Position numbers: made by a program. From NCBI GenBank assembly GCA_964547465.1, contig CAZJNI010000008.1:1-51632 (forward strand): 51,632 nucleotides of DNA, written 5' to 3'. Shown in pieces: positions 21,001 through 24,000 of the stretch. This DNA comes from an uncultured Gammaproteobacteria bacterium (GTDB taxonomy: Bacteria > Patescibacteriota > Microgenomatia > Daviesbacterales > UBA10151). Every line of letters begins with the position of its first letter. Position 1 is the stretch's first letter.

Positions 21001-24000
21001 AGCCATTATTTATGACCCTAATGCCAAAAAAGTGATTGATGTGGCCCCGATTAATGTTGGCACACCTTCTGCTCAAGTGGCCAGTCCTTCAGCAAGTCCC
21101 AAGTAAAGTGTTCGCTCGTCTTTTGTTACTTGTGACTTCGCTCCCTCTATGTCATAATAACTTTGGTAGGGGATTATTAGATTGAAATTTCCCCGACTAA
21201 AGGACTTTAGATCCGCCATTGGCGGATCGCAAGATCCTGAAAGGTCTTATTTCGTGCGTATTAAGATTATCCTACGCCTGATTTTGGCGTTAATTTTTGG
21301 AACCCTTGCGGTTATATATTCTCAACTTATTCCGCCTATTGCTGGAGCTGACCCGCTACTTATCAGGTTTCTGGTAACACTCGTTTCTGCATTAGTCGGT
21401 TTTTTAGTATTTCCTGATATTGCCAGAAGAGTAACTTTGACCACCATGAGCCTTTTTAACTTTGTGATCCATCGGCTTTCATCTGAAGTTTTAAACCAGA
21501 TGGTCAGGATTTCAAAAGGAGCGCGCTTGATGAATTTTTCCCCAATTCTCCCTCAACCAGGGGCAATTTCTTACAGCAGGCCGTTAATTTTAGATACTTC
21601 GGCAATTATTGACGGCAGGATTTTGGATATAGCTAAAGTGGGTTTTATTAATGGTTTGATCTATATCCCAAAATACGTGCTTTTGGAGCTGCAGCAGGTT
21701 TCTGATTCATCTGATGATTTAAAGCGGGCCAGGGGGAGAAGGGGTTTTGAGGTGGTTGAGGAGTTAAAAAAGATTAAGGGGTTAAAGGTAGAGATTTGGG
21801 ATAAGGAACAAACAGGCAAGAGCGTGGATGATAAACTGCTTAATTTAGCCAAGAATCTGCATGGCAAAATTGTCACCACTGATTTTAATTTAAATAAGCT
21901 GGCTTCAATTTCTAATTTAGGGGTTTTAAACGTAAATGATCTGGCTAATGCTGTAAAAACAGTGTCTTTACCCGGGGAAGAGCTTAAAGTTAAGATTGCT
22001 CATATTGGAAAAGATTTAGATCAGGGAGTAGGGTATTTGCCGGATGGGACCATGGTAGTTATTTCAGGGGGGGCAGAAAAAATAGGACAAGCCTTAAGTG
22101 TGGAAGTTACCAAATCCATTCAAATCCCGGCCGGCAGGATGATCTTTGCAAAAGAAATTTAATCTCCTTACCAAGTTACTACTTGATTTTTAGCCCTATA
22201 GTGGTAAAATTGGCAATTAATATGCCTAATTCCGAAACAAATCCAGAGCGGAGGCTTTTCCTAAATATGCTATTATCCAGAAGAGATTTTTTAAGAAATG
22301 GGCTTATTGCAACTGCTGCTGCTGCTCGTATGTTAATTCCTCCAATTAAAGGTAATAAGGATAATCAACCCCAAATAGTTCCTGTTAATTATCAGCCAGG
22401 TAGAGGTGCGCAATCTTTTACCTGGGTTCCAGTTCCAATTTCCAAAGAAGGAGAAGAGTCTACCAGTTTTAACGAAGGGGGAGCTATGGATGATTATGAT
22501 AGAGGAGATATTACTCTTAACGGTGGTAATTCTTTAGCTGCTAGAAATGGAAGATATACTCGTTTAGTTCTTAGAGAGTATTTTGATGAACTCTTGGAAA
22601 GTGGGGAATTGAATCCTGAGTGGGCTGGTCATTGCTATGGTGCTTCATCAGCATCTTGGGAATGTCCAATAATAGATGGTCCGATTAACTTATTCGGTGT
22701 TGAGATACCTGCTATACACAGAATGCAACTTGCTACTTGGTACTATTCAACAATGAGATACGATGAATGGCTTGAAATAAATGATGATGTCATAGCTGAA
22801 ATTGAAGATGTACACTTTGCTGACGGTGAGGGGATAGGGGTTAATCATACTCCTGTACTCAATCAAGAATGGTGGGGAACCCTTATTGAAGTAAAACAAA
22901 AAGGAAGAGAGTGGATATTAAGAGATTTCCGAAAATTAAGTCCTGAAGATAATGTTGGGAGAGACGGAATTTTGACGATAGATCCTCATGAATTAACTTC
23001 CGCACGCATTTTTCACTATGATGGTCCCCATCCGGGGAAAGAGAATGACTACAATTATTTTGATCGTAGAATCTTAGGAGTAATTATTGGTACTCATCAA
23101 CTAGTTGCTTGAGTTTTCCACAAATAAATTTTTTCTGTTAATAACAAAAAGTATATCCATTAGTTAAGTTGTTATATCAAGCCAAACTAAGTATGATATC
23201 CGTTTATAGAAACTCTAGGCCTACCATAATTTACCATAAAAAAACCTATGGGACTTATAAAACTTGACAAATAGTATTTTTCCTGATATTGTTAAAACAG
23301 AATGTTTGTAACCAGATTTAATTTCGGTTTGAAGAAAGAGAAAAGGGTAAGAGAAAAGAAAGCAGATTTGGTAAATGAACAGGTTAAGAAAGTTTTGACA
23401 GATTCCGACCAGAAGTTAATTCTGATGGTTAGGGGTTAAAAAAAGGAAAGTGCGAAGCAGACGGACGCACTTTCCTTTTTTGTGCACTTTGAAAATATAT
23501 TTTTATTTGATACTTTTGGCCGCAAAAGTATCACAAAACTCTCTTGCATAAAAGTCGGACTAAATTTCTCGTTTTGTTGATCGGGGGCCCCTCGGAAATT
23601 CTCCACTATCGTGGTGTCAGTTTCCGTTTCCCCTGATAACAAAGCCTCGAAATTTTTAACGTCCTTTGTTTCTGATGCAAGAATTTAAAAGAATTTGAAG
23701 AAATTTATCAAAAAAAAGGCAAAAAAAGAGCATTTAGACCGAAGGTCGCAAGGCTCTTTTAGGAAAAATTTGGAATTTTTCCGTAAAAAAAGAGCATTAC
23801 TACCGCAGACGGACTCGAATAGCAATGCCCTTTTAATTTATTTCGAAAACAACTTCAAGAGCAGATAGAAGTTGCTTTCACCTACTACACTAGAGCAATT
23901 TTGTAGCAGTTGTCAATACCCCAATTTTAGGCACGAATTTGCAAAATTGGGTACATAATTAGTTCAGATTTATCTTGGTTGAAATCTTTATTGGAGGCTA

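Follow-up and report, generated by a model that had tools for sequence, protein, structure and literature searches.

The question raised by this locus is whether a small open reading frame (ORF) and a small RNA (sRNA) gene, facing each other and sharing one 10-mer in the loops of their two terminators, form a regulatory pair and, if they do, of what kind. The window is the whole 51,632-nucleotide (nt) stretch analysed, contig CAZJNI010000008.1 of an uncultured member of the Daviesbacterales (Patescibacteriota, Microgenomatia), whose genome has 868 kb in 16 contigs (37% G+C) and whose homologues assign it to Candidatus Daviesbacteria from groundwater. All elements listed in Table 1 sit in a 1.1-kb gap between the end of an ORF at 23112 and the start of a collagen-like LPXTG gene at 24205. 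They comprise the small-protein gene on the plus strand with its terminator T1; the sRNA gene on the minus strand, made up of a 5' hairpin (hp4) and a terminator hairpin (hp3); a diverged paralogue of the latter (hp2); a dispersed repeat; and a long hairpin (BH). An earlier note, made from the window alone, had proposed an sRNA-controlled microprotein with the logic of a type I toxin–antitoxin (TA) system, and had named shared hairpin-repeat ancestry as another explanation of the 10-mer. Comparison with relatives indicates that the locus is probably a vertically inherited, Microgenomates-specific module in which a small-protein gene faces an sRNA gene; that both genes and a selected complementarity between them are real is, as one joint claim, very likely.

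Conserved blocks were defined by a DNA search of 40 relatives and an alignment of eight genera. Positions 23113-23445 have about 70% DNA identity in genera of the same family, and positions 23783-24040 have 78-100% among relatives. A PIN-TRAM (yacL-like) gene lies upstream of the module in 38 loci, from genomes of the Daviesbacteria and Curtissbacteria types, and the module is therefore taken to be chromosomal and vertically inherited. One relative (G007) has two module copies (C22:13116-13699 and C5:5062-5454), the hp3 apex of one bearing a 1-base insertion (AGACGGATCT). Many of the contigs with the hp3 RNA (L030-L103) are titled 'uncultured Gammaproteobacteria bacterium' (binchicken metagenome-assembled genomes); these titles look mislabelled.

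The plus-strand unit was found where the earlier note had placed it (TTGACA-17-TG-TATTGT, 45-amino-acid (aa) ORF, 16-bp terminator), and its promoter, with the TG extension, scores 10/12 in the promoter scan. Across the eight genera CTTGACAAATAGT and a TG-N-TAATGT -10 element are invariant or nearly so, and the ATG lies 36-40 nt past the start of the -35 element. Since the ATG follows the -10 element by 9 nt in all genera, with no Shine-Dalgarno sequence, the small-protein mRNA would be leaderless or nearly leaderless. Variation within the ORF falls at third positions or is synonymous, with frame and stop kept; the protein is encoded in 45 of 47 Daviesbacteria-type loci, which disposes of the concern that the ORF might not be conserved. 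The 22 aligned relatives give the consensus MF..KKEKR..RVD.V.EQVKKVL...DQKLILMVRG. Database homologues number 194 proteins and 215 clusters (50% identity), all of 37-79 aa and all unnamed; no Pfam or NCBIfam family was matched (E <= 10, noise aside), and a PDB profile search returned noise only. By this comparison the ORF is a real gene. As had been predicted, its product is not hydrophobic: it has 12 K+R and 6 D+E (net charge +6), a grand average of hydropathy (GRAVY) of -0.54 and no possible membrane segment (best 15-aa hydropathy window, 0.36), the core EQVKKVL...DQKLILMVRG being amphipathic. The AlphaFold2 (AF2) model, one helix with a predicted local distance difference test (pLDDT) score of 70, is uninformative. 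Small ORFs of similar build (...ADQFKKL..NLRIPVTLYHL*) are seen in other Microgenomates clades; they stop 3-11 nt before hp3, with weak profile E-values of 0.2-8. Transcription of the small-protein gene would end at T1, an inverted repeat (23439-54 / 23466-81) with the 11-nt loop AAGCAGACGGA and T6 after it.

The minus-strand unit was likewise as described before (TTGACA-18-TAGTGT, 12-bp hairpin, terminator with U7). The predicted sRNA is about 96 nt long, starting near 23880 and ending at about 23785. In 142 of 147 loci the reverse complement of TTGACA stands to the right of hp3, at a distance of 29-106 nt, and GTTGTCAAKACCCC is conserved at the promoter in the eight-genus alignment. Just 3 of the 6 positions of the -10 element agree with the consensus, which is why the promoter scan did not list this promoter; relatives have TAATGT, TATGTT or TATTGT. 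In Roizmanbacteria-type genomes the -35 element is merely some 30 nt from hp3, so that the sRNA there would comprise little beyond hp3. Compensatory changes occur at 11 pairs of hp4. The most conserved part of the sRNA is hp3, with lower stem GGGCAUUGCUAUUCG / GCGGUAGUAAUGCUC and apex GAGUCCGUCUGC: its core AAAAAGAGCATTACTACCGCAGACGGACTCGAATAGCAATGCCC is identical in 24 Daviesbacteria genera, where the protein genes alongside have just 60-70% identity. A degenerate pattern of the lower stem is single-copy in each of more than 120 Microgenomates genomes among the matches listed (Davies-, Roizman-, Curtiss-, Chisholm-, Shapiro- and Beckwithbacteria). A covariance model of hp3, built from 71 sequences, strongly matches 11 of 17 genomes sampled from the same class, and 284 genomes from other classes of this phylum gave borderline matches only; within the window's own genome the model matches this locus alone, with 64.5 bits on the minus and 27.6 bits on the plus strand. 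The apical stem covaries between clades (CGAG/CUCG, UCGU/ACGA, UGGU/ACCA, UAAG/CUUA).

The strand on which each hairpin folds was assigned by a census of G·U against A·C, in which pairs were counted as Watson-Crick (WC) / G·U / mismatch on each strand. For the hp3 lower stem (90 distinct sequences) the counts are 903 / 249 / 18 on the minus and 903 / 0 / 267 on the plus strand, the collecting pattern having permitted variation only where variation was already known; all substitutions there are transitions that preserve pairing on the minus strand only. For hp4 (40 distinct homologues) they are 461 / 65 / 8 (minus) and 461 / 8 / 65 (plus), and for T1 (23 distinct homologues) 294 / 21 / 1 (plus) and 294 / 1 / 21 (minus). 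By these signatures hp3 and hp4 are minus-strand structures and T1 is a plus-strand one. Since T1 and hp3 thus fold in RNAs of opposite sense, their apices would be complementary, GCAGACGGA against UCCGUCUGC.

The 10-mer GCAGACGGAC is present at 23457-66 (T1 loop) and 23805-14 (hp3 apex), as the earlier note had said, and has three copies in the 868-kb genome; the 14-mer AAAAAAAGAGCATT, at 23721 (hp2) and 23785 (hp3), has two. At these numbers neither belongs to a dispersed repeat, which also answers the objection that the 10-mer might be a common loop of a repeat family. The same 1.1 kb holds another exact 10-mer pair (D7), and a shared 10-mer alone is not beyond chance; the significance of the GCAGACGGAC match comes from the comparative data across relatives, not from the window by itself. 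The loop GCAGACGG is the same in all of 23 distinct T1 hairpins, whose stems are unrelated and fully covarying (GTGCG, CTTGG, CCTGG, TCTGGG, CTTGAT, GTGAG and GTTGAG among them). In a clade with the hp3 apex AGACTGAATGAACT, a hairpin upstream bears CAGACTGAATGA. In the Curtissbacteria-type clade, with the apex GCAGACTGAAA, the mRNA 3' untranslated region (UTR) has GCAGGCTGAAA in every genome examined; the two differ at one position, in a way that is G·U-compatible if they belong to RNAs of opposite strands. The invariant T1 loop and the matching changes in two other clades argue that the complementarity is under selection and does not simply reflect shared ancestry. A loop-loop (kissing) interaction between T1 and hp3 is the best reading of this pattern.

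Table 1 Features of the intergenic region and their positions in the window. Promoters, transcripts and hairpins are predicted.
Feature	Position	Strand	Remarks
Conserved upstream block	23114..23263	+	About 70% DNA identity; blocks visible in the eight-genus alignment
Small-protein promoter	23264..23292	+	TTGACA 23264-69, 17-nt spacer, TG-extended TATTGT 23287-92
45-aa basic small protein	23302..23439	+	MFVTRFNFGLKKEKRVREKKADLVNEQVKKVLTDSDQKLILMVRG; conserved frame
T1, intrinsic terminator of small-protein mRNA	23439..23486	+	Perfect 16-bp stem, 11-nt loop, U6
Dispersed structured repeat, about 190-200 nt	23489..23707	+	Inserted between the units, not part of the module
hp2, diverged hp3 paralogue	23721..23760	-	Downstream of hp3 on the minus strand, then U7
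hp3, sRNA terminator hairpin	23785..23834	-	Hairpin 23788-23834, U7 next on the minus strand
hp4, 5' hairpin of sRNA	23845..23879	-	12-bp stem, conserved loop UAUCUGCUCUU
sRNA promoter	23887..23916	-	TTGACA 23916-11, 18-nt spacer, TAGTGT 23892-87
BH, long hairpin	23978..24038	+	Covarying stems, invariant loop UAGGGCAGG

The mechanism that we propose, which taken as a whole seems on balance probable, would start from an ancestral layout (Roizmanbacteria-type genomes and several Daviesbacteria) with the ORF stop directly before hp3, the two RNAs overlapping in antisense over one bidirectional terminator. In the window's genome and many Daviesbacteria the mRNA would have gained a terminator of its own, T1, retaining only the apical motif. 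T1 would show 5'-GCAGACGGA-3' and the sRNA apex 5'-UCCGUCUGC-3', and a kissing complex between them would spread into the weak apical stem of hp3 and couple the fates of both RNAs. The most likely outcome would be that the sRNA destabilises the microprotein mRNA or alters its 3' end through duplex-dependent cleavage, a leaderless mRNA having no ribosome-binding site to block; alternatively, the 3' loop of the mRNA might titrate the sRNA. The same sRNA apex would probably act in trans on the mRNAs of giant proteins with a helix-turn-helix (HTH) domain and a transmembrane segment, in whose 5' UTR GCAGACGGA would stand 8-15 nt ahead of the AUG and would often pair in cis with CCGUCUG at codons 3-6. 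Of the earlier idea of an sRNA-controlled microprotein, the convergent, conserved pair with selected complementary loops stands; the direction of control we infer, as we do transcription, physical RNA-RNA pairing and the sign of the regulation.

The candidate trans target came from the third genomic copy of GCAGACGGAC, which is sense-oriented and separated by 15 nt from the ATG of a downstream HTH gene with a product of more than 434 aa. Its N terminus is a MerR/excisionase-like HTH; a single membrane segment and a repetitive, very long C-terminal part come after it. Open frames of the family reach about 4,500 aa, and in many members a predicted hairpin surrounds the start codon. The family comprises C12:1-1420 (minus strand) in the window's genome and the loci L149-L178. 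Comparison of its members places the motif at these genes repeatedly: GCAGACGGA (<=1 mismatch) was found within 70 nt upstream of 13 of 28 distinct homologous gene starts (30 family genomes), most copies being 8-15 nt from the ATG, and nine of the 13 motif-bearing starts also have CCGTCTG at position +8 of the coding sequence (CDS; codons 3-6). Of 41 genomes, seven contain the exact hairpin CAGACGG-N10-40-CCGTCTG; each has a single copy, and in every case it stands at an HTH gene of this family. Arm spacing varies from 19 to 57 nt and the 3' arm is fixed, so that an RNA hairpin over the start codon fits better than a DNA operator. The 3' arm of this hairpin has the sequence of the sRNA apex and the 5' arm that of the T1 loop, which suggests a circuit in which the sRNA and a competing RNA act on HTH giant-protein mRNAs as the trans target. 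Motif matches are enriched in the Curtissbacteria-type clade (53, against 10 for the control) but, outside the module, not linked to any single gene family. Two related genomes of that clade (L180, L194) have GCAGACTGAAA at 19 nt before the start codon of hrcA, which may be a clade-specific trans target or chance. A search for extended trans targets, as 11-mers common to the sRNA and the genome, gave chance-level matches only.

Several observations weigh against this account. A large part of the sRNA motif (CUGC) is within the predicted apical stem of hp3 and only UCCGU is in the loop; as the rest is held in a weak 4-bp stem, pairing would have to spread by strand invasion. Duplex energies are just modestly better than those against shuffled targets (5/300 and 3/300), RNAduplex energies being dominated by A/U tracts and weakly discriminating. 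In Roizmanbacteria-type genomes the RNAs overlap, so that complementarity is automatic there and gives no test of selection. The trans-target motif is present in only about half of the HTH genes, and the Curtissbacteria-type clade yielded no consistent equivalent of the HTH-type target. With TAGTGT, the window itself has a weak minus-strand -10 element. Of eight runs covered as Logan contigs, the metatranscriptomes X21, X33 and X22 do speak in favour, with contigs that span 23785-23927; these contigs are, however, unstranded, have a depth of about 3, run past the predicted promoter and possibly represent DNA carry-over or relatives. Three further runs (X35-37) resemble metagenomes in which the conserved core has been collapsed across species. 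Finally, conservation of the hp3 lower stem far exceeds the needs of a terminator or a kissing loop. This invariance suggests an additional partner (a protein) or some use of both strands, beyond the proposed mechanism.

From the last point it is a short step to an account in which hp3 is mainly a protein-binding site, perhaps for the neighbouring microprotein, the sRNA is a housekeeping or sequestering part of a ribonucleoprotein and the antisense arrangement is a by-product. Throughout the class, the lower stem of 13 bp and the sequence flanking it either do not vary or show G·U-preserving transitions only, and the apex, the proposed seed, is what varies between clades; the microprotein has a net positive charge, and the ORF and the sRNA are adjacent across clades. 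We nevertheless consider it unlikely, as it accounts neither for the retention of the T1 motif despite divergence of the T1 stems nor for the joint change of motif and hp3 apex in three clades, and the AF2 model of the presumed binding protein is a single low-confidence helix. The retained loop also speaks to the explanation by ancestry, in which the 10-mer would be a mere relic of a terminator-hairpin duplication, unselected for pairing. T1, hp2 and hp3 do have AAAAAAAG...GCAGACGGAC in the same register and are in this sense paralogous hairpins; but the loop is unchanged over 23 T1 variants with fully diverged stems, both partners show matching changes in two other clades, and hp2 has lost the motif, so this explanation is given hardly any credence. 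A third account takes GCAGACGGA as a DNA operator, for example of the giant-protein HTH, with the copies in T1, hp3 and at the HTH gene starts being DNA sites. The motif does make an inverted repeat around the starts of genes that encode a MerR/excisionase-like HTH. The variable distance between the arms, with the 3' arm fixed at CDS +8, is unlike a dimer operator, the T1 motif is always in a hairpin loop whose stems covary with plus-strand G·U, and repeated ATCTATGCA words beside the HTH promoters seem the likelier operator, which makes the account very improbable.

A type I TA system, as the earlier note had suggested, would have a toxic microprotein repressed by the convergent sRNA through 3'-end pairing, like par (Fst), txpA/RatA and bsrG/SR4. 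The architecture agrees: a small ORF, a convergent sRNA, shared or adjacent terminators and loop-loop complementarity; of the hallmarks of such systems, a cis-encoded antisense RNA is indicated here by the convergent sRNA gene with its conserved promoter and terminator, the opposite-strand G·U signatures and the co-varying loops. Type I systems usually have a patchy, multi-copy distribution. A classical type I system is quite unlikely because the peptide is hydrophilic and basic, where a hydrophobic, membrane-active toxin would be expected, because it resembles no toxin family (Fst/Ldr, Hok, TxpA, BsrG, Ibs; no Pfam or NCBIfam toxin match), and because the module is single-copy, syntenic in 38 loci and inherited class-wide; the suggestion is not upheld. 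The par locus of Enterococcus faecalis pAD1, in which RNA I encodes Fst, RNA II is the antitoxin and first contact is between complementary terminator loops, is nonetheless close in layout, with a small-ORF mRNA and an sRNA converging on one bidirectional terminator with complementary loops. It differs in that Fst is a hydrophobic membrane toxin, whereas the peptide here is basic and hydrophilic; in that 5' direct-repeat pairing blocks translation in par, whereas the mRNA here is predicted to be leaderless; and in that par is plasmid-borne and patchy, whereas this module is chromosomal, single-copy and class-wide, without sequence similarity to par. In Bacillus subtilis txpA/RatA, bsrG/SR4 and bsrE/SR5 the antisense RNA binds the small-protein mRNA at its 3' end, an interaction thought to act mainly through mRNA decay. 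Those systems share with the present one an antisense RNA directed at the 3' end of a small-protein mRNA; they differ in residing in prophage-like islands, in encoding hydrophobic toxins and in having 3' overlaps of at least 100 nt, where many genomes here would have exchanged the overlap for a 9-12-nt loop match and separate terminators.

With kissing between T1 and hp3 retained as the preferred reading, a wider circuit can be drawn. In anti-antisense activation by an sRNA (DsrA-rpoS, RNAIII-hla), as here, the sRNA apex is identical to one arm of an inhibitory start-codon hairpin; as with the sponge RNA SroC, a second RNA with the target motif could titrate the sRNA. The present circuit differs in being deduced from sequence, and its putative sponge would be the terminator loop of a protein-coding mRNA antisense to the sRNA. 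Tentatively, and with considerable doubt, a three-RNA switch in an ultrasmall bacterium may be envisaged in which the sRNA apex UCCGUCUGC and the T1 loop GCAGACGGA mimic the two arms of the start-codon hairpin and compete over translation of the HTH protein, and in which hp4-BH kissing and a protein-binding stem would add further control.

The intergenic region has no Rfam match at the gathering threshold, and ARAGORN found nothing; at E <= 5 there were only chance matches to microRNAs or sRNAs, far below the cut-offs. No regulatory sRNA of the Candidate Phyla Radiation (CPR)/Patescibacteria was found described in Rfam or in the literature searched. A signal recognition particle (SRP) RNA was considered and rejected: no SRP family matched 22900-24400 at E <= 5, a scan for the domain IV motif was empty, and the conservation of hp3 in the lower stem, not the apex, is the reverse of that of SRP RNA. 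A divergent 6S RNA was discarded as well, with no model match. These searches also brought up no SRP components: RF00169 had 0/41 matches and PF02978 (Ffh M domain) 0/41 among 41 genomes (the window's own and 40 relatives of the same class, several of them complete single contigs), RF01854 had 0/1, and control genomes were matched. No ORF of the window's genome has the DTAGR motif common to Ffh and FtsY. This result would follow if Microgenomatia have lost SRP or if its components have diverged extremely. A dispersed repeat or repetitive extragenic palindromic (REP)-like hairpin family is not indicated either, with the copy numbers of GCAGACGGAC and AAAAAAAGAGCATT given above and the hp3 model matching this locus only.

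The remaining features of the region surround the two units. The second minus-strand hairpin that shares the 14-mer, reported earlier at 23721-60, was borne out; hp2 is at the same position in L007, L016, L027 and L028, is missed by the hp3 covariance model at E <= 0.001 and is probably a back-up terminator or a duplication relic. The dispersed repeat has 11 copies in the genome with 72-80% identity (the others at C1:7694, C1:97350, C1:115326, C3:14546, C4:1470, C4:15485, C5:52648, C13:14093, C15:3873 and C8:39909) and is present in other genera too. Its first hairpin has compensatory changes (ACACTTTTGTAACCAAAAGTGT vs ATACTTTTGGCCGCAAAAGTAT), it has no Rfam match, and the segment is missing in L002-L004, where the ORF stop directly adjoins hp3. 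The upstream block begins with a DnaA-box-like TTTTCCACA (TTATCCACA in relatives; TT(A/T)TCCACA), followed by AAAAGTATA, AACTACAGGAC and CCTATGGG, and is probably the regulatory region of the small-ORF promoter. A replication origin at TTTTCCACA is not indicated: a single box was seen, downstream of the PIN-TRAM gene and with no dnaA context.

BH lies beyond the sRNA promoter, with no promoter of its own recognised, and is conserved across several families of the class. The census of its pairs over 51 distinct homologues (802 WC / 187 G·U / 24 mismatches for plus, 802 / 24 / 187 for minus) clearly assigns the structure to the plus strand. Its loop AGGGCAGG may pair with the hp4 loop UCUGCUCU (6 WC + 2 G·U). 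In the Curtissbacteria-type clade a BH-like hairpin is inside the sRNA unit, and there are hints of a second ancestral overlap that would have been resolved into a BH-hp4 kissing pair. Another pairing, of the hp4 loop with ORF codons K-R-V-D, was tried and is not a general trait; it beats shuffled loops in only 4-5 of 35 loci, and its position is unconserved.

Beyond the earlier note, the comparison has brought in the deep conservation of hp3, the inserted repeat, a likely trans target and the BH hairpin. CPR/Patescibacteria are uncultured, with genomes of about 1 Mb and few recognisable regulators. As judged from sequence, the sRNA and the microprotein each represent a new family; their arrangement is a variation on the familiar convergent-antisense theme, and a trans regulon is plausible. 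The sRNA family now has a covariance model, more than 120 members among the matches listed, a strand assignment and covariation. In evolutionary terms the locus illustrates how an overlapping antisense pair may develop into two separate terminators that keep just the matching loop. It offers a hypothesis of RNA-RNA control that is testable by mutation and may extend to giant surface proteins believed to underlie the episymbiotic life of these bacteria.

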